Assembly (NCBI RefSeq): GCF_964204645.1
Contig: NC_134025.1
Location: forward strand, 19,505,101 to 19,569,100
DNA: 64,000 bases
Source: Tubulanus polymorphus
Lineage: Eukaryota > Animalia > Nemertea
Direction: 5' to 3'
Made by a program: the position numbers and the translations under genes. Positions 1,428 to 62,243 of the stretch are shown here, piece after piece. How positions within the stretch are numbered: position 1 is the first letter of the stretch; every line of letters starts with the position of its first letter. The notes beneath the pieces are model-generated. The model was not told where the DNA came from, searched no databases, and was given only the letters and a program-made list of their open reading frames with translations.

Positions 1428-2600
1428 TCAAAACAAACTAGAACCATCAGGAGCACTGACATCAACATAACAAAAATCGCTCATGCATTTCAGGTTATGT
1501 GGATTGAATATTCATAAGTACAAATATTCCATTTCATCAAATGGTTTTAACAAGCAAAAAACCTAAATCCCTGTTAAATTATATATTTTCATAAAATACA
1601 GATAAAGCAAACTTCCTGAAACAAATAATGTTAAAACTGAAATCCCAATTTCGAAACTCAAACAAAAACCTTTTCGGATACCGGTATTTCATTCAAAAAT
1701 GTTTACCTGGTATGTATATTTATACATAGATTATATAAGTTTTTGTATAAAACTTGTTTTGTTATTTTTGTATTACATAAAAGATATTATTATTACGAAA
1801 TTCATAATTAAAGTTCGTTCTTCTGGAATCGGTTTTCTTTCCTTAATCTGCCTGTCATTCTCTCTGTATAATCGTATAAATCGTATAAACGTTTATATCC
1901 AGTCAGAGGGCGTGGCAACATTTACAAGGAAAAGATTTTTTTATGAAACTTTCATGTGTATCCTGTGGATCGATGTAACCTCAATCGCCAATTTCAGTGT
2001 AAATTTAATGTATTGTATGATATATGACGCATTCTATCATACGTTTACTTTGTATTTGCACCGTGATACGTGTAGGCTACTGTAAAAGATCGTAGCATAT
2101 TTTGTCAGAACCGAGTGATATGGCAATTTGCCGTTTTGCTTGCGGGGGTAGTAGTATTGACAGCTTCGTTGTTTTTCGTCTACAATTGAATATCAGATAA
2201 CAACCGAGTATTTTTGCAGAATATGAATATGCAATTGCATAAGGTCACTCAAAACGGATTCCTAGTTTAATCATTTCTGAAAACCTCACGCGTCAAATAA
2301 AATGCGCACTCCCGCTTCGAAAATAACTGCTCCCAATCGCTATACGCACCAACGTTTTAAAGTCGTCTTTTTAAAAATCGTTTAGCTGTACGTCGTTTAG
2401 TGTTATTGGCGACGGAATTCGAACGGCCGTAATGATTTTGTCGATAGAAATTACGTCAAAGTCAAGGGATATAATTTCCTTTTTAAGCTGGTCGGTCATC
2501 ACTTAAGACGATTAAACTACTGTGACAGAGGCGTACTTCGAAAATAAAAATCACCCCCTCGTCTCCTGAAAAAAGAAAGTAAATTGTTTTCATTTCAGCT

Positions 2601-5600
2601 TTTTAGCCCACTTGCGACTTTAGTCCCAGCGGGCTAATGCGTTCACTTTTCGTCCGTCCGTCCGTCCGTAGACGGAATCCAGTTATTTTGGGAAGTTTTG
2701 AAGACGCTTCAAGGTAACGTCTTGATATTTGGGTTACACATGTATCTACCCTAGACACATCTTCAGCCCAAAAACTGGCCCTGTCAGAATCAAGATGGCC
2801 GACTGGCAGCCATTGTTGTTCGTCAAAATCAGCACTTTTTACACATTTTTTAGGCCAGCCGTAGGCTGAGCCTATTACTATACAAATGGAGCGAATTTAA
2901 ATGACATGGTTTCCACACAAAAGGCTCTTTTGCTTGCCAAGTGAGGGCATATTCGAACAAATCACGTATTTAAGCATAATCCATTCTCAGAATCGTAGCG
3001 AGCAGAATTTTGAAATAGGGTCTCATAAAAATGTTTTCTGCATTTTTCACGAAAGTTAAATCGGGAAAATTTCAATTTTTATCAGCCAATCAGGAAGTTG
3101 TGTCTTCCCTGTGATTGGTTTATCTGAAAATATCAGCAGCTGTTCACGTGAATTATCGCGATTTCATTACTGGCGCTTTTGCGCATGACGTCATGTATCA
3201 ACACGTGACAATACTTCCGCGTTCGCTACGTGTTCGCTGATTGGCCCATTTACTGGGAAATTCCACAGAAGCCTAATGTGGTTTGTTACAAGCGCTGTGA
3301 TTGGCCCGACCCGATTCTGGCATGGCTTTAGCTTAGTGGGTTCGAATCCCTTGACGCGTGAAGATGATGGATCCTATCAATATCTATTGAAACAAATAAG
3401 TTTCCCGGTTGGGCAGCCGCGGATATCTACCGGAAGTGTTCCGGTTCGATATTTCGAGGTTTCTTTGAATTTTGGAGTGATATTGAAATCCGGTAAATAC
3501 CAGCGGTAGATTGTGAAAACCCATTGCATGATATTTGTATTACTTAATCCACGAAAAGCGTCGGGGCCGCGCCAGGAGTTTTCGTGATTCAAGTAGCGCA
3601 ATAGCCTACTTCTTCGTGTTCGTCCACCTCAATTTTCATTCCGCCGATCTCTGACACGGCTCTGTCCCCGTCGGCGCTGTGATTGCACTTTCGTACCACC
3701 AAAATTTTTTATTTCTATATCAGGGAGGTCTGGAGAATAAAAAAGTCAAAATTTGGATATCACATAGGCCTGATTTCATCGAATAAGTCGACCATGGTCG
3801 TTACGTTTCCGTACTTATTACCACCTAAAACCGTCTGAACAATTTTGTCACAACCAACATTTCGTTTACAGAAATCAGGTGTTCACGTGAACCCGCGGTA
3901 TCGTCTACTGTTTTACTTCCGGGTTTTATTTTAAGATTTAAAATTGTATTTCAAGATCGATTTCTATGAAATCTTTAGTTGATTTGGTGTTTGGGAGGAA
4001 TTTTTATTTGCTCTACAGAAAATTCATCCTTGACAATTGCGCAAGGTTCGCGAAAAAAATGGTTTTACCAAATCGGGTGTATGACCTTGATATGCTAATT
4101 AGCCATGTGCCCATATTGCAAATTCAATCAAATTTTATTCTGCCAAAAAAATGTTAAATACAATTCGCTTTCCGAGAGTTAATGGTATGCTGCATGGAAC
4201 AAAGTTGTTTTGAGATGGGTCTTGAAGCTATTGAGGTCGAGAGATAACCATCTAGATAGTTCGTGAGAGTTCCAAAGTTTTGAAGAGGCTTCAAGGTAAT
4301 GTCTTGATATTTGGTTTATACGTGTATCTACCCTAGACACATCTTCAGGCCAAAAACTGGCCCTGTCAGATTCAAGATGGCCGACTGGCAGCCATTGTTG
4401 TTCGCCAAAATCAGCACTTTTTACACATTTTTGAAGTTTTCGAGGGAAATTTTGAAGACACTTTTATCAATAACCTTGATAATTCGTATATATTTGTTTC
4501 CCCCGTGGGCCCATCGGCATGAGAAAAATTGGGTCGATCGGACTCAAGATGGCTGTACTGTGACCTTTTTTGTTCCCAAAAATGTCAATTTTGGCCTGAA
4601 ATCTGAGTACTGTAGCTTTCTAATGGTGTGCCATGTTTCATTGCAATTTGTAATGGGTATTCTTTGGAAAGGGATCTTTTATATCCGAGAGGGTATTTTT
4701 GACCAGGCAATTACGACGCACTTGGCGGCCATCTTGGAGTCATCAGTACTCATTCGTAGGTGGAAAAAAGTTTTTCCACATCATAATTGATACTTAAGCA
4801 TATTTTGCTACTATAATCAATTGGAATGATGTAGCTCATGACGTTCTATGATCGAGGTGAGTTTCAAGCTCATTGGTTTTTGTTTATGGCCACCAGGGGG
4901 CGTTGAACAATACAATAACTTAGTATTTCTATATTACATTCGTACCTATGCATATTTTGCTACCACAATCAATTGGAAAGTTGTAGCTCATGACATGGTC
5001 TATGATCTTGGTGAGTTTCAAGCTCATTGGTTTTTGTATATGGCCACCAGGGGGCGTTGAACAATACAATAACTTCGTATTTCTATATTACATTCGTTCC
5101 TGCTGTCTGTGTTAACACACGATTTTACTATGTAAATGATATTGAGCAGGGAGTGTATATTGATAAATATAACCAACAGATTAGGGCCTACATCATTTAT
5201 AAAAAGCAAATCTGACAGGCTGGCCATTGTGCCCCTTGGGGCTCTTTTTGAACTTTTTGAGGGAAATTTTGAAGACGCTATGATCAATTTACCTTGATCT
5301 TTCGAATATATATGAATCCCCCCAGGGCCCATCAACATAACAAAAATTGGGTCGGTCGGACTCAAGATGGCCGTCCTATGACCTTTTTAGTGCCCAAAAA
5401 TGTTAATTTTGGCCCGAATTCTGAGTCCTGTAGCTTCCTACTGGTTTGCCATTTCTCATTACAATTTGTGATGGGTATTCTTTGGAAAGGGATGTTTTAT
5501 ACCTGAGACAGGTATTTTTCATCAGCCAATTATGACGCAATTGGCGGCCATCTTGGTGTCACCAGTACTCATTCGTAAGTGGGAAAAAGTTTTTCCACAT

Positions 5601-16346: not shown

Positions 16347-17086
16347 CTTAAACAAGAGAAACATTTTCGCTTGCTTTCAAATGATTACCAACATACAAAA
16401 TCGTTTGAGATTGAAAATATCATATTGCATGAATTATAATGCTATGCTCTATACACGTGAAAACCATTGTTGCTACAAGGGAATTAACGTACGTATTTGC
16501 CCAGTCTATTTGCTAAACGTTTTACAATCAACATTGATGTTTTTTTAAATAATCCAACTTATTAACAACAATCTAATATATGATACGAAAAAAATTGCGA
16601 CGCGGGAATAACCCGGGCAGGTTGAACAAATGAAACAAATGATTACAAATAATCTAAGGAATTGAAATTTCTCGTCCAAAAGGTTTCAAATAGATAATAG
16701 GTGAGTTGGCTAGTTACATTGCAGAAAAAAATGTATCGTTGTGCCGACAGTGATATGGCCGATGAAAGCTTTCGAAATAGACAGTTGGACGGACTAGACA
16801 CATCAGACATTTTTTTTTGAAAAATGTATGAGTCCTGCACATGTGTAGCACACAGCATTGGAATAATGGAGCGGTTGTTAGGGCAACTGCAGTGAGCAAA
16901 CTACACGATGATTGTTTGCTTGTGCGGAATACTAATAATGCGTAGAATGTGTATTCGAAAGTTTTTGCGAGGTTTCTCTGAACTGTCAAAATATTTGCAT
17001 ACCAATTTAAAACAAGAGTGCTTCGCTAACTAAACGTTCTATCATCCTAGTTGAATTAGTCGATTACTGTCAAACACAATCCTTAC

Positions 17087-17919
17087 CTGCTGCGTACAAA
17101 TGACTTCTTGACAATAGTCTGTTTCCTTCGATAAATCGGTATCGCTTAGTAAATCTCTCACCAGAACAATGCCGATCAAATCGTGGCGGGAAAAGCGATC
17201 GAAGTCGTATAAACTGAACTGTAACATGCGCTTCGGCAAATCGTTGTAAGGTACTGCGAAGTTAAATGTCTCATCAAAATCGGGACACAATGTTTTCCTA
17301 TGGACTTTCGTGTGGAATTTGTTCTTTCTGTCCGGGAGTAGGTACACTTTTATGTATGGATCTGACGTTCCTGAGAAGTCTTTTGCGGGCAGTTCTTCGG
17401 CTTTGATTAAATTCACGACTAAATGCTCAGTTATTTGATCGTATAAAAGTGAAAAATATAAACGGCCGCAGGTTTTCGTGAAAATGTTAGAGGGTCGTCT
17501 GTCGTCAACGGCTAACTGTCTGTACAGTTCTGGTTTTAACGTGCCGATATCGGGTTGACTTCTCATGTTGAGTTTGCTAACGGTAAACTCAACATTTGAC
17601 ATGTCAAGTTTATGCGACAATTGACGCTGGAATGACTGATGACGCTGGGGAACCGTTGGCAAGGTCGTTTGCCTAAAGACCATCTTCCCCCAACCGAATT
17701 TTCGCAATGAGGAATGCTTATCCTCGTTGAGATCTGGCGTACTTTGACTAATTTTCAAGTTAGTCGTTTTAAATCCTGGCGGTGTATGGTCAGGCGAGCT
17801 CACAATCGAGTGGTCTTTCCTTTTTGCTTTCCAGCAGTACCACGTACAGTATGCAACTATGAGCATGACAATCACGCTCACTGATACCATTACAATGATA
17901 AGATATTGCAACGGTAAAC
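17087..17919 (-). CDS. Synaptotagmin exon (TM helix, linker, C2A)
   Basis: Hydrophobic helix then CTWYCWKAKRK; C2A motifs LPAKDFSGTSDPYIKVYLLPDRK and YDFDRFSRHDLIG; tttcag| and |gtaag boundaries. Confidence 0.95.
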
Positions 17920-19455
17920 CTGAAAGATAGATAGATCGCGTTGATATATTTATACATATAGGTTGAGACAATCGATTGCTTTCATCTGAGTCGATGCAAA
18001 CAAACATTCAGTCGGCAAGGAAATGCTTTTATACTTTTTTTCGATCAGTATTCGGAGAACTAAATTTGTCTGCATCACAATTGACATTAATGTACCACTT
18101 AACATGAATCTCGAGGAAGTAACTGACAAATAGCAGCCTGTCAATTTAGGCACATCAGATGCGCAAGACAATAAGTGATTCTGTTTGTCGTGCAGCAGTT
18201 GTACAACAGACTAAAGGCTAGGTATATACCGATAATATGAAAACACGCGAAACGATTCATTTTTCTCAAAATCCATATTCAATTTAATACAGCGATGTGG
18301 ATAATTTTCTAATGGCTCCGAGGTGACAAACACTCAATTCAACCAGCGTAAACCAGTTCATGAGTTACAGATATGAAATGAAAAAATACAAATCCCATTG
18401 ACTTTGACGTGAAAATAAGAAATGTCTTTCTGTGACCTTGACCTTTGTCCTACAGAACCCAGCATCTAATCAATTACTCACAGTCCCAAGATCAACCCAT
18501 CAATACAATTTTACCTGGGTCATCTAAATCGATTTATGAGATAGACCCCGGAAATACAAATTAATATCAACTAAATTTCTTAACACCGACTCGCTGACAT
18601 CAGTGTGAGGGATTTCAATACAAATATTAAGTTCCGCGTTAATGTAGTATATATATCCTTGATGAATCATGGCCGCTGTGCCGCTTGGTCGAAATAATAA
18701 CGAAGTGAGATTTCGTCGAGAAAATCAGAATTTCTGGGCAGTGGAAAAATGAACTAAGAGCCTGAACGAAGTTGGGAGTCGGGGGCAAAGTTATCAAGCA
18801 TAGTTGTATTGTCAGAATATATATGACAAATAGTACACGTGACACATTTTTCAATAATCAAGAATTATTCAAAATAACGCTCCGAATTTTAGTTGATATC
18901 ATCATGATTCGAAAAAATAGAACTTATAAACATTTGTTGTTCTGTGTGTGCTCAATACAGTTGCCACAGATTTGATCAATAAAACTATGCCGATAATTTT
19001 GTGACGTTGTGACAATACAAAGTTTATGAATGACATGAGGCGGGTATGATTATGATAGACCCAATCAATAATTTAGATTTGTGTAATCAGTATCCACTAG
19101 AGGGAGAATGACGTACGTAAACGCATGGCTAATTAGCATAATACAGGATGCTGCGTGAATGACGATTGGGTGCACTAATACTACCGAAGTACCGAATAAG
19201 ACCCTCCACTGGGGCAGTAGTCTAAATTCATAAAAAAAGCTACCAATTTAGTTACGAACTGAATGGGAGCTTGCATATACGACTGCTTGAAATCTGGGAA
19301 AGTTGAGTAAGCTATCACGTTTCCTAGCCGTTGGTGAAATTCCATTACAAATATTCTGACCCATAACGTAAAAATCCTAAAATTCCCCGATCTTTTCAGT
19401 CGGTATTCTATGGTGGCTGATTCGGGCTATGTAAAAAAAATCACAAATGGTGCAA

Positions 19456-19909: not shown

Positions 19910-20271
19910 GTTTACTCGGTAAAAAAATACGGTCTAAATAGAGCTGAGTTAGGCGAAGTCAATTCGTGCAAATCATGACCCCCCATTAACCAAACGTTCT
20001 GCACTGACTACAAATTAGTAAAATAGTTTTTAAAAATTTAGAAATGACCAGAATGTTAAGTTAGGTCCTATCCCATTTTACATTTTTACAATTGTGATTG
20101 CTATGATATTTTTGTAAACGGCCATTAAAGCGTAATGTTTCGTCTGCAATTCAATGCAAATAGTTACGTATTAACTACGCAAATTTATATGTTTTTGGGC
20201 GGACGATGAAGTGAATATACGCATACAGTATGCACCCACAACGCGTTGAGAGGCATGAAACAGGTACACGT

Positions 20272-20844
<573 letters not shown>

Positions 20845-21424
20845 ATATATGATATGATTATTTACAAGTTTTTGGATTTGCTTCAAACTGCCAACAATGA
20901 TAATGACAGGAACTGTTGACCGAGGCAGGCCTAATCGCGGTGAGATAAATGTGTCCTTCCCAATTATACAGTATGATTATACAGTAATGAAGTTAGTACC
21001 AGACACGCCGTTAACATTTGTCCGACAACTGCGGAAGGTGGCAGAGTTAATTATCAGTTGATAATCATCAATGTTAAATGTCCTAGAGAATTCAGACCCC
21101 AGTTTTGCAAAGCTTATCCAGAAATCGCATCGCTGAAAGCATTAGAAATGAGAAGGTTGCGCAACAGTTTATATGCATATAAACTGTTGCAAAAAGTGAC
21201 ACTGATTAATTTTGGTTCATCAGAATAGAAATGTTTTTCAAGTGAGTCTCGCCCAAGTGTAAAAGCTGTGCCATGGCTGTAACGAATACATCAGAGACAC
21301 CAGGTTATCTCATCTGGAGAACCGGCTGCCTGGTGATAATACCGTATACGCTACCTCAGTGAAATGAGAGAGATACCGAAGATATTTTAGTATCATCGCT
21401 AACGATTATCAATGTTTAACTTAC

Positions 21425-26237: not shown

Positions 26238-26485
<248 letters not shown>

Positions 26486-28915
26486 ATTTAGAAATGAATT
26501 GAGTAAGTCCCCAGGTTGAAGTTAGTACTAGTCTATAAAACCGGGCCGGGGTGTATGAAATATGAGTATATCCCTGAATTATAGGTTATAAATTGTAGCC
26601 TTTGATTCAGGGAAACTGTGCGTGAAGTCGTATCAATATCAGAAGATTTACTACCATCCATAAAGATTAATTTTCACCATATTATCCCGAAAGACAACAA
26701 CTTGTTTTTCCAGGTCTCGTTTGCATTCTGAGGATTCCTTTGTTGAGAATGTCATAAAATCAATCCTGTAGTCAAAATTATAAAAGGTATTTCTAAAAGG
26801 TATTAGGACCGGTTACTAAATACAATTATCTAACTTTTTTATAGATCTGCATATACGTTTAGATTAAAGTTACTATTCAAGATAGATTTTATGAATAAAT
26901 ACGTGCCGTCTCATTTCGAGGTATATTCATCAGCTTGTTCAGCGGTAACTCTCGTCGGTATTCAGTATTTCGTGGGAGATACAGAATACCAAGTAATCTC
27001 ATCACCGCAACCGAAAATGTTCATTAATTCTTACTCAGGGTATCTAGCCCGGGAAACCCATTCAACTGATCTTTGATGGTAATTTTTCGATCATCACCAG
27101 GGATGCAATCGAAAAATATCAATTTATATCTGCAGTCTAGTACCACGGGATAAGAAAAATGGAATTAATTCGCCATTGGATTAGTAGGCCCTGACCAATG
27201 AAAAATGCTTAGCCCCAGTTTCGGAAGTAAACCCAAATTAAAGCGGCTGTACGAAAATATCTTCCTCGACACAGTTTTAATTCTAGAATAGGCCCGATTG
27301 GAAGAATTGCGAACTCACGCGAATATGGTGACGAGAAATCGTAACGCACGTAACCTACTTCTTTCTGCTGCTTTCACGCCCTATAAATTATCAATATGCC
27401 TGCTGAACTGAATATATATTCATTCAGTTCAGTAAGTAGGCATACTGAGAAACGCAAGAAGATATATAGATAGAAAAAACATGTATATCCTACCTTTTTT
27501 CTCTATATCAATACTATGTCCACTTCACTCTCCAGGTGAGCGGTCGCGTAGCATGTAATCATCATCAAATCCCTGACCCAAAGAAATCGAAACAATATAT
27601 GTTCACTGCTCGGCAATAGCAAATACTACGTATACTGGTTGACTCAACAGGCTCTGTATGAATCCAGCAATAGTTACCACTAGCAACCAGGTACCTTATT
27701 GTCAGTTTCCAGTTGCAGCAGTCGTAGAAATATACCCATGCCAAAATCGTTTGATCACTCATTTATCTATCGACTTTGCCATTTATGTAGTCATTTTCAA
27801 GTTTGCACACAATGAAAAACATTCAAGAATATATAGAAAACAATATCTACAAGCATCCCATTTCTAAAAATACCTGCCAATTACTGAGAAAAGATTTAGA
27901 ATGAACATGAATGATTTAGATCAAATTTCAAAACGTTGCAAAGATTGGACTCATTAATTGATTACTTCATTACTTTAGCCACGGAACTAGACGCCCATTC
28001 GTGGAGGTCAATGATGAATTTCGAGAAAATCTAATCAACCGAAATGCGTCTGTATATACATGCAAATATAATGATCGGATTTACAAGTTAAAATTAAGGA
28101 CGGATAGCTGTCACAGGATATGCTTTGACCCTAACTTTACAATGTATTTAAAATCACCATCGAATGAGCAATATTTATGGGCTTTTGCTAGTGTATCTGA
28201 ATCTCCTCCTGTCTGTGTTTAGCCAGCTAAAAGCTAGACGGAAATCTAATCACTGGAACAGAGAGCCTGGGGGTAAGTGCAGGAAATGTATCCAGTATCC
28301 GGAATAATGGAAATATGCATGATGTCTACAAATATTCGCGAGCTCTGGTATACTTGGGGTCGTAATTGATACGAAAGTATTCCCGTCGAGAGGGCAGTAG
28401 AGATTACTTATTGATGTTATCATATGCCGTTCACATAATGAAAACTAATTTGTGCTAAAGTAGTGGTGAACAATGCGGGCATGATCCAACCTCGTGGCCA
28501 AATGGGGCTAATAGTATGAACTATTTGCAAAGAGGTACCTGGAAATATTTACAGAATGTGTTCATTTTGGTAACCGCGCATTCACGCCTCGAATTTTCGG
28601 TAATGGTACCTTAACTCCCTTTCTCAGAAAAGCATACCGACTGTTTTTCGCCAGAAAGCGTGATGCAGACAAATTACCCTTTACAATTACACCACCAACT
28701 GTGCTCGGAAAAAGTGGTCATAAACGAACATGTTGCAGGCAAACCGACCATAAAATAATGGGCTTAATTTCACGTACAGAAGTGTTGACATGGCGGCTTC
28801 ATAATAGTGTCACCGATGAAGCTATAATCCCATATGATTAAATGTATTACCCGAGCAATTCGTGACTGAATTGACGATGTCTCCGAGAAAAAGAAATCAT
28901 CGTTCTTTTTTGGTT

Positions 28916-29848
<933 letters not shown>

Positions 29849-30447
29849 ATACATATTTATATAGCGTATAAGCTACATCTTAGCGCGGGCACGTCAGATT
29901 GATATAGTAAGTGCAATAGTTAGCGTTCTCGTTGTCTGGATCAGAGAAACTTTACACCAAACGGTTCCGAATAACGGAAAGACAGCAGTAATAGGGGTAA
30001 TAGGCTTTCAAATCAAAGGTCGAACGGTCGAGCTCATAAAAAATGAAAAACATGAAAATAATAACAATTTCTACTTGAATTAGTCGCGAAACTCATAAAA
30101 AATGAAAAATAATTCTCACACACTCGAATTTATTTTTCATTTTTACTCGCTAGAAAAAAGTGTGAGTAAAGTGTGAGTGAAATAAATTCGAGTGTGTGAG
30201 AATTATTTTTTATTTTTTATGGGTTTCACTCCTAATTCAAGTAGAAATTGTTATTATTTTCATGTTTTTCATTTTTTAATGAACTCCACCATTCAACCTT
30301 TAACCTGAAAGCCTATTACCCCTATTACTCTTAAAATATTCATATACATGAATAAAATATATATGAATAACATATAAATTGATAGATTATTCAATATAAG
30401 TGTGAGTGAAATAATTCATATTAAAAACAGTGAATATTTATATTTGA

Positions 30448-31081
30448 ATGAGTTTTAATAAAAATTTTGTTATAAAAATGAAGAAAGAAGAAAAAGAACC
30501 CAACTTTAAAATCGAAATCAATGAAACCAATAAATCATTTTCACAGTTTTACATTAAAAATTATATTTCAGCAACAAATTTTGTGTCCGCAAGGTATTAT
30601 AAAATCAAAAATATTACTGTAATTAATCAAATATTATCAAATGAAACATATTTAATTACTGAACTAGTAGATACTTTTGATAATGGCGTTAAAAATCCTA
30701 AAATATTCAATACAGTTTTAAAATTAAAAGGAATTTTAGATGAAAACATAATAAATTTTCTTAATACTCCTTTCAATGAAAGAAATGATGATTTAATACT
30801 TTCTAAAGATTATAATGATTTGATTAACTTAAGAATTGAAAAAAGACAATTATATTATTTCAATTTTGATAATAAACAAATTATCTATAATGAAAATTCA
30901 TCAAATATTGGAATTCAATGTGAATTAGATAATGAAAAATCATTTAAAGATATTGCAGTTCAATGTAATTTAGATGATGAATTTAGAAAATTCAATCCTA
31001 ATGAAAAAGTGCATTGTTATTGCGGAGGTAAATATTTAAAATCACATAACAATTAAAAATAAAAACTGGCGTAAAGAGTAA
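30448..31081 (+). pseudogene. Element ORF1, left copy (~215 aa ancestral; C-terminal CxC..H..H zinc finger), 17-nt deletion near the 3' end
   Basis: 202-aa ORF 30448-31056; compared with the right copy it lacks aatcaaagcattatgga. Confidence 0.75.
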
Positions 31082-31133
31082 CAATTCTACATTACAATTA
31101 TTGAATTGAGTTAAATGATTTAAATATCTAATA

Positions 31134-32390
31134 GACTGTTAAAATGATAAATTGTTTAACAGTTGAAATGATAAATTGTTTAACAGTTGAAATGATAAAT
31201 TGTTTGACGGTTGAAATGATAAATTGTTTGACAGTTGAAATGATAAATTGTTCGACAGTTGAAATGATAAATTGTTTGACAGTTGAAATGATAAATTGTT
31301 TGACAGTTGAAATGATAAATTGTTCGACAGTTGAAATGATAAATTGTTCGACAGTTGAAATGATAAATTGTTTGGCAGTTGAAATGATAAATTGTTTGAC
31401 AGTTGAAATGATAAATTGTTTGGCAGTTGAAATGATAAATTGTTTGGCAGTTGAAATGATAAATTGTTTGGCAGTTGAAATGATAAATTGTTTGACAGTT
31501 GAAATGATAAATTGTTTGACAGTTGAAATGATAAATTATTTGACAGTTGAAATATTAAATTGTTTGACGGTTGAAATGATAAATTGTTTGACGGTTGAAA
31601 TGATAAATTGTTTGACTGTTGAAATGATAAATTGTTTGGCAGTTGAAATGATAAATTGTTTGACAGTTGAAATGATAAATTGTTCGACTGTTGAAATGAT
31701 AAATTGTTCGACAGTTGAAATGATAAATTGTTCGACAGTTTAAATGATAAATTGTTTGACAGTTGAAATGATAAATTGTTTGGCAGTTGAAATGATAAAT
31801 TGTTTGACAGTTGAAATGATAAATTGTTTGACAGTTGAAATGATAAATTGTTTGACAGTTGAAATGATAAATTGTTCGACAGTTGAAATGATAAATTGTT
31901 TGACAGTTGAAATGATAAATTGTTCGACAGTTGAAATGATAAATTGTTCGACAGTTGAAATGATAAATTGTTTGACAGTTGAAATGATAAATTGTTTGGC
32001 AGTTGAAATGATAAATTGTTTGACAGTTGAAATGATAAATTGTTTGACAGTTGAAATGATAAATTGTTTGGCAGTTGAATTGATAAATTGTTTGGCAGTT
32101 GAAATGATAAATTGTTTGGCAGTTGAAATGATAAATTGTTTGACAGTTGAAATGATAAATTGTTTGACAGTTGAAATGATAAATTATTTGACAGTTGAAA
32201 TATTAAATTGTTTGACGGTTGAAATGATAAATTGTTTGACAGTTGAAATGATAAATTGTTTGACTGTTGAAATGATAAATTTTTTGACAGTTGAAATGAT
32301 AAATTGTTTGACAGTTGAAATAATAAATTGTTTTACAGTTGAAATGTTAAATTGTTTGACAGTTGAAATGTTAAATTGTTTGGCTGTAAA
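31134..32390 (+). repeat. 24-bp tandem array (~52 units, atgataaattgtttgacagttgaa)
   Basis: Direct reading; the MINCLTVE periodicity in the ORF track reflects the 24-bp unit. Confidence 0.97.
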
Positions 32391-32506
32391 TTTCATTGTT
32401 ATTTGATTTAATCATTTAAAAGTTTAATATTTTTAAAATGATTATAAAATATTTAATTAAAAACTAGCAAATATTTTATAAACTGTTTAATTTTTCTCTT
32501 AAATAA

Positions 32507-32716
32507 ATGGATGGTTTCATCCCAACTGGGAAAAGTGATTTGAAACATTATTTAGTAGCAGGCGGATAAATATTGGCTGCGCTTTTCTTTTATTATGAAA
32601 ATATCAGTAAGGATTTGATTAATGAAAATATAAAATTGAGCAAGAAATTAAAGAAGTTAAATGGAAACAATCACAGAAATAAAAAAGTTAATGATTTAAA
32701 TGATTTGGAGGATTAA
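32507..32716 (+). pseudogene. Element ORF2, small putative membrane protein with one internal stop
   Basis: taaATG; MDGFIPTGKSDLKHYLVAGG*ILAALFFYYENISKDLINENIKLSKKLKKLNG...DLED*; in-frame TAA at 32567. Confidence 0.5.
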
Positions 32717-32763
32717 AACAACATCTTTTAATTTAATTTATTCTATATATTTTGTCTATAAAA

Positions 32764-33069
32764 ATGAGTGAAAATAAGGTATTAGAAATATTACATCTAA
32801 TATATAAAAATCAACAGAATATTTAATCAATTATTATGATTTCAGGTTTATTTTCATTCTCAGTTTATACTATAAAACAGTTGTTAGAATTCTATGATTG
32901 CTGTAAAATTAGATACACTGAATTAATAGAAAATATGAATTATATTTCAGATAGATTGAATAATATTAAATGCTGTGAAATATGCAATAAAAGATATAAA
33001 AATAAAAAATCATTAAGGAATCACATGTATCTTCACGAACTTGATGAAAAATTATATGAATCAAAATAA
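32764..33069 (+). pseudogene. Element ORF3, small C2H2 zinc-finger protein with one internal stop
   Basis: MSENKVLEILHLIYKNQQNI*SIIMISGLF...CEICNKRYKNKKSLRNHMYLH; in-frame TAA at 32824. Confidence 0.6.
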
Positions 33070-33224
33070 GAAATCGACTGTTAAATTAGCTGAAAATATA
33101 AAATATATTAGTTGAAATGTATGAAAATGAGTAAATTATATTTACGTTAAAAAAGGAGGGTTGAGGTATCAATGTATTAAATACGTATTAAATACGTATC
33201 AAATACGTATTAATGGTATTAAAT

Positions 33225-33432
33225 CATCCGTCAACTGTCAAACAATTTATCATTTCAACTGCCAAACAATTTATCATTTCAACTGTCAAACAATTTATCA
33301 TTTCAACTGTCGAACAATTTACCATTTCAACTGTCAAACAATTTATCATTTCAACTGTCAAACAATTTATCATTTCAACCGTCAAACAATTTATCATTTC
33401 AACTGTTAAACAATTTATCATTTTAACAGTCT
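33225..33432 (-). repeat. 24-bp tandem array, inverted copy (~8-9 units)
   Basis: Reverse complement of the 31134 array. Confidence 0.95.
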
Positions 33433-33483
33433 ATTAGATATTTAAATCATTTAACTCAATTCAATAATTGTAATGTAGAATTG

Positions 33484-34097
33484 TTACTCTTTACACCAGT
33501 TTTTATGTTTAATTGTTCCATAATGCTTTGATTTATGTGATTTTAAATATTTACCTCCGCAATAACAATGCACTTTTTCATTAGGATTGAATTTTCTAAA
33601 TTCATCATCTAAATTACATTGAACTGCAATATCTTTAAATGATTTTTCATTATCTAATTCACATTGAATTCCAATATTTGATGAATTTTCATTATAGATA
33701 ATTTGTTTATTATCAAAATTGAAATAATATAATTGTCTTTTTTCAATTCTTAAGTTAATCAAATCATTATAATCTTTAGAAAGTATTAAATCATCATTTC
33801 TTTCATTGAAAGGAGTTTTAAGAATATTTATTATGTTTTCATCTAAAATTTCTTTTAATTTTAAAACTGTATTGAATATTTTAGGATTTTTAACGCCATT
33901 ATCAAAAGTATCTACTAGTTCAGTAATTAAATATGTTTCATTTGATAATATTTGATTAATTACAGTAATATTTTTGATTTTATAATACCTTGCGGACACA
34001 AAATTTGTTGCTGAAATATAATTTTTAATGTAAAACTGTGAAACTGTGTTTTTCTTCTTTCTTCATTTTTATAACAAAATTTTTATTAAAACTCATT
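33484..34097 (-). pseudogene. Element ORF1, right copy; intact C-terminus, frameshifting indel near the 5' end
   Basis: Ends VHCYCGGKYLKSHKSKHYGTIKHKNWCKE*; 43 nt of the left copy are replaced by cacag near 34045. Confidence 0.75.
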
Positions 34098-34660
34098 CAA
34101 ATATAAATATTCACTGTTTTTAATATGAATTATTTCACTCACACTTTTATATTGAATAATCTATCAATTTACATGTTATTCATATATATTTTATTCATGT
34201 ATATGAATATTTTAAGAGTAATAGGGGTAATAGGCTTTCAGGTTAAAGGTTGAATGGTGGAGTTCATTAAAAAATGAAAAACATGAAAATAATAACAATT
34301 TCTACTTGAATTAGGAGTGAAACTCATAAAAAATAATTCTCACACACTCGAATTTATTTCACTCACACTTTTTTCTAGCGAGTAAAAATGAAAAATAAAT
34401 TCGAGTGTGTGAGAATTATTTTTCATTTTTTATGAGTTTCGCGACTAATTCAAGTAGAAATTGTTATTATTTTCATGTTTTTCATTTTTTAATGAACTCC
34501 ACCATTCAACCTTTAACCTGAAAGCCTATTACCTAGCCTATTGCTAGCGTCTCCTCTAATCGTTTCAGCTGACCGTTTGAATAATCAAAACATAGACAGA
34601 AAATGCAGGCCTCCAAGTAGAGATCCAGTTTTCAAAGACTACAAAGTCTTATCCTCACTA

Positions 34661-42896: not shown

Positions 42897-45800
42897 ATTC
42901 CGCGACAATTCATTATTTTGGTTTTATCGCCCGCGACAATTCAATATTTTGGTTTTATCGCCCGCGATAATTCATTATTTTGGTTTTATCGCCCGCGACA
43001 ATTCAATATTTTGTTTTTATCGCCCGCGACAATTCATTATTTTGGTTTTGTCGCCCGCGACCATTCATTATTTTGGTTTTATCGCCCGCGTCAATTCATT
43101 ATTTTGGTTTTGTCGCCCGCGACAATTCATTATTTTGATTTTGTCGCCCGCGACGATTCAATATCTTGTTTTTGTCGCCCGAGACGATTCATTATTTTGG
43201 TTTTATCGCCCGCGACAATTCATTAGTTTGGTTTTATCGCCCGCGACAATTCATTAGTTTGGTTTTATCGCCCGCGACAATTCATTAGTTTGGTTTTGTT
43301 GCCCGCGACAATTCAATATTTTGGTTTTGTCACCCGCGAAAATTCAATATTTTGGTTTTATCGCCCGCGACAATTCATTACTTTGGTTTTATCGCCACCG
43401 ACAATTCATTATTTTGGTTTTTTTCTCGCCCGCGACAATTCATTATTTTGCTTTTATATTTTGTTTTTGTCGCCCGCGACAATTTTCTTTTTTGGTTTTA
43501 TCGCCTGCACAATTCAATATTTTTGTTTTATCGCCCGCGATTATTCATTATTTTGGTTTTGTCGCCTGAGACAATTCATTATTTTGGTTTTAACGCCCGC
43601 GACAATTCATTATTACGGTTTTATTGCCCGCGACAATTCATTATTTTGGTTTTGTCGCCCGCGACAATTCACCATTTTGGTTTTGTCACCAGCGACAATT
43701 CACCTTTTTGGTTTTGTCGCCCGCGACAATTCACCATTTTGGTTTTGTCGCCCGCGACAATTAACCATTTTGGTTTTGTTGCCCGCGACAATTCATTATT
43801 TTGGTTTTATCGCCCGCGACAATTCATTAATTTTGATTTATCGCCCGCGACAATTCATTATTTTTGTTTTGTCGCCCCGACAATTCTTTTTTTGGTTTTG
43901 TCGCCCGCAACAATTCAATATTTTGGTTTAGTCGCCCGCGAAAATTCAATATTTTGGTTTTGTCGCCCGCGATAATTCATTATTTTTCTTTTATCGCCTG
44001 TGACAATTCAATATTTTGGTTTTATCGCCCGCGATAATTCATTATTTTGGTTTTGTCGCCCGAGACAATTCATTATTTTGGTTTAATCGCCCGCGAAAAT
44101 TCTATATTTTGGTTTTATCGCCCGTGATAATTCATTATTTTGGTTTTATCGCCCGCGAAAATTCATTATTTTGGTTTTATCGCCCGCGACAATTCAATAT
44201 TTTGGTTTTATCGCCCACGACAATTCATTATTTTGGTTTTATATTTTGTTTTTATCGCCCGCGCCAATTATTTTTTGGTTTTGTCGCCCGCTACAATTCA
44301 ATATTTTGGTTTTGTCGCCCGCGACAATTCATTATTTTGGTTTTATCGCCCGCGACAATTCAATATATTTGTGTTTTATCGCCCACGACAATTCATTATT
44401 TTGGTTTTATATTTTGTTTTTATCGCCCGCGCCAATTATTTTTTGGTTTTGTCGCCCGCGACAATTCAATATTTTGGTTTTGTCGCCCGCGACAATTCAT
44501 TATTTTGGTTTTATCGCCCGCAACAATTCAATATTTTGTTTTTATCGCCCGCGACAATTCATTATTTTGGTTTTATCGCCCGTGATAATTCATTATTTTG
44601 GTTTTATCGCCCGCGAAAATTCATTATTTTGGTTTTATCGCCCGCGACAATTCAATATTTTGGTTTTATCGCCCGCGACAATTCATTATTTTGGTTTTAT
44701 CGCTTGCGACAATTCATTATTTTGGTTTTGTCGCCCGCGACAATTCAATATTTTGGTTTTGTCGCCCGCGACAATTCATTATTTTGGTTTTATCGCCCGC
44801 AACAATTCAATATTTTGTTTTTATCGCCCGCGACAATTCATTATTTTGGTTTTATCGCCCGTGATAATTCATTATTTTGGTTTTATCGCCCGCGAAAATT
44901 CATTATTTTGGTTTTATCGCCCGCGACAATTCAATATTTTGGTTTTATCGCCCACGACAATTCATTATTTTGGTTTTATATTTTGTTTTTATCGCCCGCG
45001 CCAATTATTTTTTGGTTTTGTCGCCCGCTACAATTCAATATTTTGGTTTTGTCGCCCGCGACAATTCATTATTTTGGTTTTATCGCCCGTGACAATTCAA
45101 TATTTTGGTTTTATCGCCCACGACAATTCATTATTTTGGTTTTATATTTTGTTTTTATCGCCCGCGCCAATTATTTTTTGGTTTTGTCGCCCGCGACAAT
45201 TCAATATTTTGGTTTTGTCGCCCGCGACAATTCATTATTTTGGTTTTATCGCCCGCAACAATTCAATATTTTGTTTTTATCGCCCGCGACAATTCATTAT
45301 TTTGGTTTTGTCGCCCGAGACCATTCATTATTTTGGTTTTATCGCCCGCGACAATTCATTATTTTGGTTTTGTCGCCCGCGACAATTCTGTAGTTTGGTT
45401 TTGTCACCCGCGACAATTATTTTTCAGTCCACTTGGGACTTTAGTCCCAGCGGGCTATTGCGTTCACTTTTCGTCCGTCCGTCCGTCCATAGACGGAATC
45501 CAGTTATTTTGGGAAGTTTTGAAGACGCTTCAAGGTAATGTCTTGATATTTGGTTTATACATGTATCTACCCTAGACACATCGTCAGCCCAAAAACTGGC
45601 CCTGTCAGATTCAAGATGGCCGACTGGCAGCCATTGTTGTTTGCCAAAATCAGCACTTTTTAAACATTTTCGAAGTTTTCGTGGGAAATTTTGAAGACGC
45701 TTTGATCAATTACCTTGATCTTTCGTTTATATTTGAATCTACCAAAGGCCCATCAGCATAAGAAAATTGGGTCGATCTGACTCAAGATGGCCGTCCTATG

Positions 45801-61885: not shown

Positions 61886-62010
61886 TTAGGGACGAAAGTC
61901 TCAATTATGCCCTAAGGCACAAACTCTTTCTAATGCATCCAAAGAGAAAACTAAGACCAGCATTTGCGATGAAGACGATTGATAAAATGCTATATCCGTG
62001 TTGAAGCGAT

Positions 62011-62211
62011 GTAGAGAGAATCCCACAATAATAAGAAAAACAGTCCGAAAATGTTACTTTGAGCTCGTAGTTTATTCAACGTTTCAACTATATCCTTATA
62101 TCCATTATTCCTGAAGATGACTATTAGGATATAGTAAAAACGTTGAATAAACTACTAGCTCAAAGTAACATTTTCAAACTGTTTTCGTTATTATTGTGGG
62201 ATTCTCTCTAC
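62011..62211. mobile_element. Penelope-like inverted pseudo-LTR remnant with a degenerate hammerhead
   Basis: ~80-bp inverted arms; CTGAAGA-tgactat..atagt-aaaaacgttg-aataaa on +; truncated copy with intact gaaacgttg on -. Confidence 0.6.
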
Positions 62212-62243
62212 ATTGGCGATGAAGGTATCAACAACAAACTTAC

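Follow-up and report, generated by a model that had tools for sequence, protein, structure and literature searches.

Palindromic tips on a probable foldback-type transposon family in the ribbon worm Tubulanus polymorphus

Introduction

The subject of this study is a 4.55-kb AT-rich insertion in the genome of the ribbon worm Tubulanus polymorphus (Nemertea). It lies in a stretch of 64,000 nucleotides of contig NC_134025.1 (assembly GCF_964204645.1), which we call the window and from whose first letter all positions are counted. Judged by their architecture, the foldback-type elements of Drosophila appear to be the nearest described systems. According to the available part of its description, Tetris of Drosophila virilis has tandem repeats inside its inverted repeats and shares the final part of those repeats with DAIBAM, a miniature inverted-repeat transposable element (MITE); the small element is the more abundant of the two, and a single autonomous transposon is presumed to mobilize both (PMC4079207). 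For Galileo, the portion of the literature available to us reports subfamilies, chimeric copies and exchange between copies, mainly in the inverted repeats (PMC3573991).

The Tubulanus element resembles Tetris, as far as the available description goes, in being apparently non-autonomous, modular and highly rearranged, and in having long terminal inverted repeats (TIRs) with tandem repeats. Compared by description, it also recalls the Tetris/DAIBAM pair in that only the end of the TIR is shared with a more abundant element. It differs from Tetris in its palindromic tips, of which the part of PMC4079207 available to us makes no mention. According to the same text, the repeats of Tetris measure about 220 bp as opposed to 24 bp here, no open reading frame (ORF) lies inside its inverted repeat, and the host is an insect. 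With Galileo and Drosophila Foldback, as described in the available sources, the element shares long, internally repetitive inverted repeats, subfamilies and exchange between copies. Galileo, a member of the P superfamily, is described there as having a P-type transposase gene, whereas none was seen in the ORFs of the present element; its tips, unlike those found here, are not described as self-complementary in the available part of PMC3573991. Across the accessible portions of the literature on foldback elements, hairpin-ended elements and transposons of the host species, we found neither palindromic tips on long TIRs nor any such nemertean element.

An original prediction, made from the letters of the locus, described imperfect terminal palindromes with an asymmetric apex and proposed that one arm had been copied from the other, as expected from hairpin-primed replication or conversion. 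Having followed up these proposals with folding, alignment, raw reads and protein searches, we favor the following reading, at a probability of roughly 0.55: the locus is one copy of a multi-copy, AT-rich, foldback-type DNA transposon, whose palindromic tips of about 330 bp are likely inherited parts of 1.3-kb TIRs and not products of hairpin replication.

Results

Raw DNA reads from a run labelled as the same species were aligned to positions 29900-30430 and, separately, to the whole element; four further runs cover parts of the stretch. Statements on read variants concern the 40 listed of 70, and those on loose read ends concern the classes listed, 244 further ones being left out. Against a flank depth of about 6, corresponding to one copy, depth reached about 2,400-3,060 over the outer 57 bp of the tip (about 500 copies per flank depth), 1,200-1,570 over the stems (about 200-260), 515-530 at the apex (about 85) and about 1,300-1,330 at the junction of the inner arm with the internal sequence (about 220). 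Over the unique centre, the reads aligned to the whole element gave a depth of 64-117, or about 15-30 copies. Likeness to the present copy was 90-95% in 4,468 of 6,532 reads, 95-99% in 1,845 and 99% or more in 219.

The left end of the element was set by 1,838 reads (483 + 1,355) that depart from the reference at exactly 29986/29987. The low agreement among their loose parts (0.34-0.35) implies many different insertion sites, and an exact end beside unlike flanks in so many reads is the signature of a transposable element. Such defined ends and unrelated flanks in a repeated family are features of foldback-type TIR transposons. The element belongs to a transposon family and is not a viral genome. 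Among the end-departing reads, the base preceding the element is C, as it is here, in 26%, so that no TA or TTAA target is evident. The right end was set by alignment to the left tip; because its outermost 20 bp are slightly unlike that tip, with one substitution and a short insertion, it is placed at about 34540.

The element begins with AG and ends with CT, and its flanking bases are C on the left and A on the right. The 6 bp on either side differ (GACAGC left, AGCGTC right), and a possible target-site duplication spans 3 bp of them (Table 1). Galileo, by comparison, duplicates 7 bp. Once the element is removed, the flanks of this one copy are mirror-symmetric around AGC (AGAC-AGC-GTCT), which could reflect a palindromic target site or an inverted repeat reaching a few bases further out.

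Internally, the element stands apart from the host part of the window in GC content (23% against about 37%) and in the ratio of observed to expected CpG (0.75 against 0.99). Each TIR contains, from the outside in, a palindrome, an AT-rich leader with a 17-mer discussed below, an inward-reading ORF of about 200 codons and a 24-bp tandem array; the inverted repeats extend 1 kb past the palindromes. Aligned to each other, the left and right repeats show 15 substitutions over 1,108 ungapped columns, along with nine insertions or deletions. Long inverted repeats with internal tandem repeats of unequal number, here 52 against 8.4, are again a foldback-type feature.

That both termini can form hairpins, as originally predicted, was borne out by DNA folding, which placed both far beyond chance. 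The left palindrome folds at -128.9 kcal/mol (-133.4 on the minus strand), compared with -27.2 +/- 3.6 in 100 dinucleotide shuffles, none of which was as good (z -28.5); the right palindrome, folded as 34217-34545, reaches z -29.9, and its minus strand (34217-34540) folds at -142.5 kcal/mol. An alignment of all four arms likewise confirmed the reported 9-bp tip repeat (AGTAATAGG/GGTAATAGG) and the reported difference between arms, with TAGTCGCGAAAC in both outer arms and TAGGAGTGAAAC in both inner arms, which together form a four-base mismatch bubble. It also confirmed a patch in which the left outer arm differs (30011-30037) while the other three arms are identical. The left inner arm carries 7 extra bp when aligned to the right repeat.

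The apex reported for the two termini held up as a motif; the quoted string itself is the right apex on the opposite strand, and the left apex carries an 11-bp duplication. Recurrence of the apex motif near ORF1 was found as described: the 17-mer AAGTGTGAGTGAAATAA is present at the apexes and upstream of both ORF1 copies (30169 and 30398 on the plus strand, 34130 and 34354 on the minus strand; 0.01 expected). The motif GTGTGAG occurs nine times in the element, compared with 0.12 in shuffles, and this enrichment is real.

Reads further showed that the family contains at least two subfamilies with palindromic tips. Behind 30043, at the inner edge of the 57-bp tip, 870 reads depart with a common continuation (agreement 0.81), and 277 reads join the reference before 30273 from a common sequence (agreement 0.94). 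By eye, these two continuations are mutual reverse complements over 22 letters. In the right tip, 184 reads show the same continuation at the corresponding mirrored position, behind 34273. The 277 reads have a median of about 77 nt on the reference and must therefore extend past 30329 into internal sequence; 285 reads diverge behind 30355. It follows from these continuations that the commoner subfamily shares just the 57-bp tip and 26 bp inside the palindrome. That subfamily is also palindromic at its tip, with a different stem interior, so the palindromic design predates the present copy and was retained while the stem sequence changed.

Long palindromes are prone to central deletion. Here, joints skipping 138, 60, 73, 75 and 147 nt around the apex, each found in 45-123 reads, show that many family members have altered centres. 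Joints of another kind involve the two direct copies of the 17-mer, at the apex and in the ORF1 leader (30176-30418): contigs of two runs skip 241 bases between them, and 42 raw reads carry a joint going back 242 bases between the same two copies. In some copies, accordingly, the inner arm would be missing and the tip would not be palindromic.

The proposal that one arm was copied from another was supported by the clustering of the patch differences and by a rare letter common to three of the four arms. Seven of the 15 substitutions between the left and right repeats fall within the 27 bp of the patch (scan-corrected binomial P about 1e-6), and six of these seven are transitions. At 30287, one of the seven differences, 637 of 683 family reads (93%) have G in place of C; the letter absent from 93% of family reads at this and its mirror sites is held by the left inner, right inner and right outer arms. 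Copying must therefore have carried it from one arm of the right palindrome to the other, and likewise from one inverted repeat to the other. Reads place the form seen in the left outer arm beside flanks. Most simply, the difference between outer and inner arms that is usual for the family has persisted in the left tip, and the patch in the right outer arm was overwritten from its own inner arm. The two repeats as wholes are 98.6% alike (99.3% outside the patch), while family copies are 5-10% diverged, which points to exchange within the element or to a very recent duplication of one half. Copying itself is thus supported. Hairpin-primed replication as its route is not, and gene conversion, template switching and hairpin repair are the candidates.

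Rolling-hairpin replication inverts a whole palindrome, and outer and inner markers then swap jointly in about half of the termini. The two apex isomers (flip and flop) expected on this model were not seen: the palindromes keep one orientation in this copy and among the read variants listed. Inversion of the left tip would not give the right tip, whose outer arm retains TCGCG, the marker of outer arms, and resembles inner arms in the patch alone. Outer-arm reads continue into unlike flanks (the 1,838 departing reads described above), with a loose-end consensus that is not internal sequence. Across the end of the inner arm depth is steady (1,331 to 1,303 at 30329/30330), and no large loose-end class occurs there among those listed, of which the smallest has 229 reads. 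If the classes are ranked by reads, we read this as inner-type arms lying beside flanks in fewer than about one in six cases. Two variants are listed at the marker sites, one at 30083 (G>C, 40%) and one at 30085 (C>A, 25%), with none at 30084, 30087, 30228, 30230 or 30231 and no joint marker swap. The test is a weak one, given reads of 150 nt, their sorting between near-identical arms, and partial sets of variants and loose ends; at that resolution, hairpin-primed replication with flip/flop isomers is not supported. Within the same read limits, a single orientation was therefore found where the original prediction had looked for two, while its alternative of arm differences scattered by random decay does not describe the data (P about 1e-6).

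We next consider what the element may encode. Because about 200 codons are open in DNA of 23% GC, which is very unlikely by chance, ORF1 is a present or recent gene. Compared with each other, the left copy lacks 17 bp, so that its frame ends inside a zinc-finger motif, and 38 bp close to the start are missing from the right copy, putting its upstream ATG out of frame; both ORF1 copies of this element thus appear to be broken by insertions or deletions. No Pfam match above threshold was obtained for ORF1 or ORF3. For ORF3, zf-C2H2 (21.8 bits) and zf-C2H2_4 (23.0 bits) both scored under their cut-offs. Neither word-based searches nor exhaustive HMMER returned a full-length homologue of ORF1. Against 1.84 billion representatives, HMMER found 12 proteins at E <= 0.001 (best 6.9e-7), 11 of which match only residues about 141-192; the twelfth, P0011, aligns from residue 92. 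By eye, the matched stretch is a Cys-x-Cys-Gly-Gly...His...Thr-x-Lys-His motif that is repeated in the matching proteins. With ORF1, a PDB sequence search yielded no match with E under 0.39, no usable match came from the ESM Atlas, and an AlphaFold2 model built without an alignment was unusable (mean pLDDT, the predicted local distance difference test, 36). From their predicted sequences, ORF1 and ORF3 are best interpreted as small zinc-finger proteins that may bind DNA, and the element is without a recognizable enzyme for its own movement.

The C-terminal motif of ORF1 (residues about 160-192; 33487-34062 on the minus strand) corresponds to no Pfam family above threshold. The same Cys-x-Cys-Gly-Gly motif is often present several times per protein in the metagenomic matches and looks like an uncatalogued type of zinc finger.

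In 4 of the 12 matching proteins, a GIY-YIG nuclease domain lies at the start, and descent of ORF1 from such a nuclease was examined and rejected. Pfam finds no GIY-YIG match in ORF1, hhalign covers only 21 zinc-finger columns, and ORF1 scores 1.8 bits with a profile built from the nuclease part, a value that 754 of 3,000 shuffles attain. A pairwise BLAST alignment of ORF1 with P0011 spans 110 columns, and the nuclease reading is rejected despite that length. Searches of IMG/VR for relatives returned no match to the tip pattern, confirmed none of 11 candidates for ORF1 and none for P0004 and P0009; with P0011 they gave three loci, matching only its nuclease half. The tip pattern also had no match in metagenome contigs.

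Table 1. Positions of the features of the element within the window.
Feature	Position	Strand	Description
Whole element	29987-34540		4,554-bp insertion; GC 22-24%, against 32-46% elsewhere in the window
Left TIR	29987-31334	+	Palindromic tip, ORF1 and start of the 24-bp array
Right TIR	33231-34540	-	1.3-kb repeat, partner of 29987-31334
Left terminal palindrome	29987-30329	both	343 nt, imperfect
Right terminal palindrome	34217-34540	both	DNA fold -146.9 kcal/mol, z -29.9
Outer 57 bp	29987-30043	+	Sole part of the tip common to the more abundant subfamily
Divergent patch, left outer arm	30011-30037	+	7 substitutions (6 transitions) and a 1-bp insertion or deletion
Mismatch bubble, outer-arm side (TCGC)	30084-30087	+	Unpaired in all four folds
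Bubble partners	30228-30231 (left inner); 34315-34318 (right inner); 34441-34444 (right outer)		From the four-arm alignment
Left apex, asymmetric spacer	30136-30182	+	Two GTGTGAGT motifs through an 11-bp duplication
Right apex	34360-34392	-	Left apex in reverse complement, 11-bp duplication absent
Second copy of AAGTGTGAGTGAAATAA	30398-30414	+	34-65 bp upstream of ORF1 start codons
Mirror copy of the ORF1-leader AAGTGTGAGTGAAATAA	34130-34146	-	
ORF1, left copy	30448-31056	+	202 codons
ORF1, right copy	33484-34062	-	192 open codons; complete CxCGG..H..H motif
24-bp tandem array	31134-32382	+	52 copies, 95% matches
Unique centre	about 32383-33230		Holds ORF3
ORF3	32836-33069	+	77 codons, in the unique centre; one C2H2-like finger
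Inverted 24-bp array	33231-33431	-	8.4 copies
Possible target-site duplication (AGC)	29984-29986 and 34541-34543	+	3 bp, this copy only; chance 1 in 64

The surroundings identify the window as nemertean chromosome. An ORF at 17042-18007 on the minus strand is a large synaptotagmin-like exon with a C2 domain; it is 99% identical to an NCBI synaptotagmin-6-like protein of Tubulanus polymorphus, with the next-best matches from another nemertean and from molluscs, and it is these matches that place the window. Flanking ORFs encode a C2 domain and C2H2 fingers, and long ORFs are sparse in the window. Searches for RNA genes in the window gave no Rfam match at gathering level and no ARAGORN tRNA.

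Other repeats and compositional features were also observed. A foldback unrelated in sequence, at 62009-62213, has 97-nt arms that are 90% complementary around an 11-nt spacer and resembles a palindromic MITE from another family. Long self-complementary simple repeats are present at 26239-26505 and 28903-29063, the second of which contains (TA)26 (29000-29051) and begins just over 1 kb, with the (TA)26 itself under 1 kb, before the insertion. The region 43290-45575 has a strong AT skew (-0.22 to -0.32), several overlapping long plus-strand ORFs and a weak Med25 match under the cut-off, and is probably low-complexity coding or repeat sequence. GC reaches 46% at 20185-20919, where both strands have ORFs of 200-230 codons; the one ORF searched had no Pfam match.

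Discussion

The observed patterns suggest a foldback-type DNA transposon whose palindromic tips are an inherited part of its design. Such an element would be non-autonomous, or at least without a transposase; its movement would depend on an enzyme acting in trans that recognizes the 57-bp tip, which each palindrome would present twice, once at the outside and once, inverted, at the inside. Gene conversion or template switching inside the element, together with exchange with other copies, may keep arms and repeats alike. Animal genomes do not stably maintain long perfect palindromes. Here the bubble and the asymmetric apex may serve as spacers that temper this instability, and many members appear to have lost or shortened the apex. 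ORF1 and ORF3 may bind the GTGTGAG motifs, for which the original prediction had proposed an element-encoded binding protein, or the 24-bp array.

Several points weigh against this reading. Pfam detected no transposase domain in ORF1 or ORF3, and HMMER gave only zinc-finger matches, whereas a foldback-type TIR transposon has a transposase either of its own or in an autonomous relative; both movement in trans and the superfamily are what we infer. The class is assigned by architecture alone, because no foldback element in the available literature is described as having tips that form long palindromes. The possible target-site duplication comprises 3 bp in one copy. Of the 12 ORF1 read variants among those listed, four are synonymous, giving no sign of purifying selection. 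The low GC content and an intact-looking ORF1 with about 200 open codons fit a more self-sufficient element. Finally, reads of 150 nt and near-identical arms bias both the sorting of reads and the tables of variants.

Two memberships were considered on the strength of shared features and rejected. Polinton/Maverick elements have AG...CT termini, long inverted repeats, a 6-bp target duplication, and polymerase and integrase genes. The AG...CT ends and long repeats are present here, but the flanking 6 bp differ and Pfam found neither polymerase nor integrase. Transpovirons, associated with Mimiviridae, are small, AT-rich linear DNAs of about 7 kb with long TIRs, a zinc-finger protein and a helicase gene. 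The element is likewise AT-rich, with long TIRs and a zinc-finger protein; it has no helicase detectable by Pfam or HMMER and is chromosomal, multi-copy and hosted by an animal.

Of the rival explanations, one would make the element a composite, in which each palindrome is a complete small foldback MITE and two inverted MITEs mobilize the DNA between them. Like palindromic (foldback) MITEs, each tip alone has arms of about 150 bp, a short spacer and a high copy number. Both end sequences are present in each palindrome (AGTAATAGG...CCTATTACT), read joints show many variants to be short perfect palindromes without an apex, and the excess of tips over inner junctions leaves room for solo palindromes or simple ends. 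Unlike such MITEs, however, the palindromes adjoin an internal sequence that is conserved, and they form the ends of a 4.5-kb, ORF-bearing element. From the steady depth across the inner end, with no large loose-end class listed there, it follows that about 220 copies, the second subfamily included, conserve the junction to the next 26 bp; the inverted repeat also continues for 1 kb beyond the palindromes. We regard a composite as possible, though unlikely.

The remaining alternatives give the hairpins or a virus a larger part. Parvoviruses and densoviruses have ends that are imperfect palindromes with bubbles and an asymmetric apex, on genomes of 4-6 kb, with inverted terminal repeats in some genera. 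The Tubulanus element shares the imperfect terminal palindromes, bubble, asymmetric apex and similar total length, and it could on these grounds be a self-replicating, hairpin-ended linear element, comparable to parvoviruses, poxvirus telomeres or linear plasmids, that entered the chromosomes many times. Its AT-richness relative to the host, and an ORF and tandem repeats within the inverted repeat, would suit this idea, as would the preponderance of transitions in the patch: these keep G-T pairs on the strand with its 3' end at the tip, which therefore folds slightly better (-133.4 against -128.9 kcal/mol). Yet Pfam and HMMER searches of the element ORFs revealed no Rep/NS1 (HUH nuclease plus SF3 helicase), polymerase or capsid gene, flip/flop isomers left no sign in the reads, and IMG/VR holds no confirmed relatives. 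Tens to hundreds of chromosomal copies, 5-10% diverged and with exact ends in 1,838 junction reads, are transposon-like; moreover, the hairpins are twice the parvovirus or densovirus length and the inverted repeat makes up more than half of the element. We therefore hold such a replicon to be very unlikely. A similarly slim chance, slightly smaller if anything, attaches to a single-strand HUH/Rep-type transposon (Helitron/Helentron or IS200/IS605-like) whose terminal hairpins an external enzyme recognizes on single-stranded DNA. Terminal hairpins are a general recognition feature of Rep transposases in the available parts of PMC10288648 and PMC3627910, and the palindromic tips are retained here in two subfamilies with unlike stems. 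According to the same sources, Helitrons and Helentrons have no long inverted repeats, insert between A and T or T and T, and carry a short 3' hairpin, and Replitrons (PMC10288648) and Helitron2 (PMC3627910) have short direct or short asymmetric inverted terminal repeats with only short hairpins. Here, in contrast, true TIRs of 1.3 kb end in AG...CT between C and A, no HUH motif or Rep domain was found in the element ORFs, and the hairpins are ten times longer than those in the available descriptions. The combination of GIY-YIG with zinc fingers of the ORF1 type is typical of giant viruses. An endogenized relic of a giant-virus-associated element, such as a transpoviron-like linear episome, could explain the AT-rich, linear-looking sequence, its long inverted repeats and the metagenomic matches to ORF1, 4 of 12 with that domain. 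We nevertheless consider it highly improbable, as no helicase or other transpoviron gene was detected (Pfam, HMMER), the GIY-YIG part is unlike ORF1, IMG/VR contains no confirmed relatives, and copy number in the animal chromosome is high.

Under the favored reading of a foldback-type transposon, the locus represents a transposon family with a palindrome at each end, a design retained in at least two subfamilies with different stems. As such it offers a natural system for studying how palindromes survive, through spacers, bubbles and copying between arms, and how, within one element, arms and repeats remain almost identical even as separate copies diverge by 5-10%. Little has been described of the transposons of ribbon worms, and this family may lead to an unclassified transposase. 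A more radical possibility, which we consider quite unlikely, is that the family is an animal mobile element of a new kind whose ends are handled as DNA hairpins: either a hairpin-ended linear replicon that has no Rep protein itself, or a new superfamily with an enzyme recognizing hairpins of about 330 bp; the tip would then have been kept across subfamilies because its fold is the substrate. If hairpins do prove to be the substrate of movement, this would be a new mode of transposition in animals.

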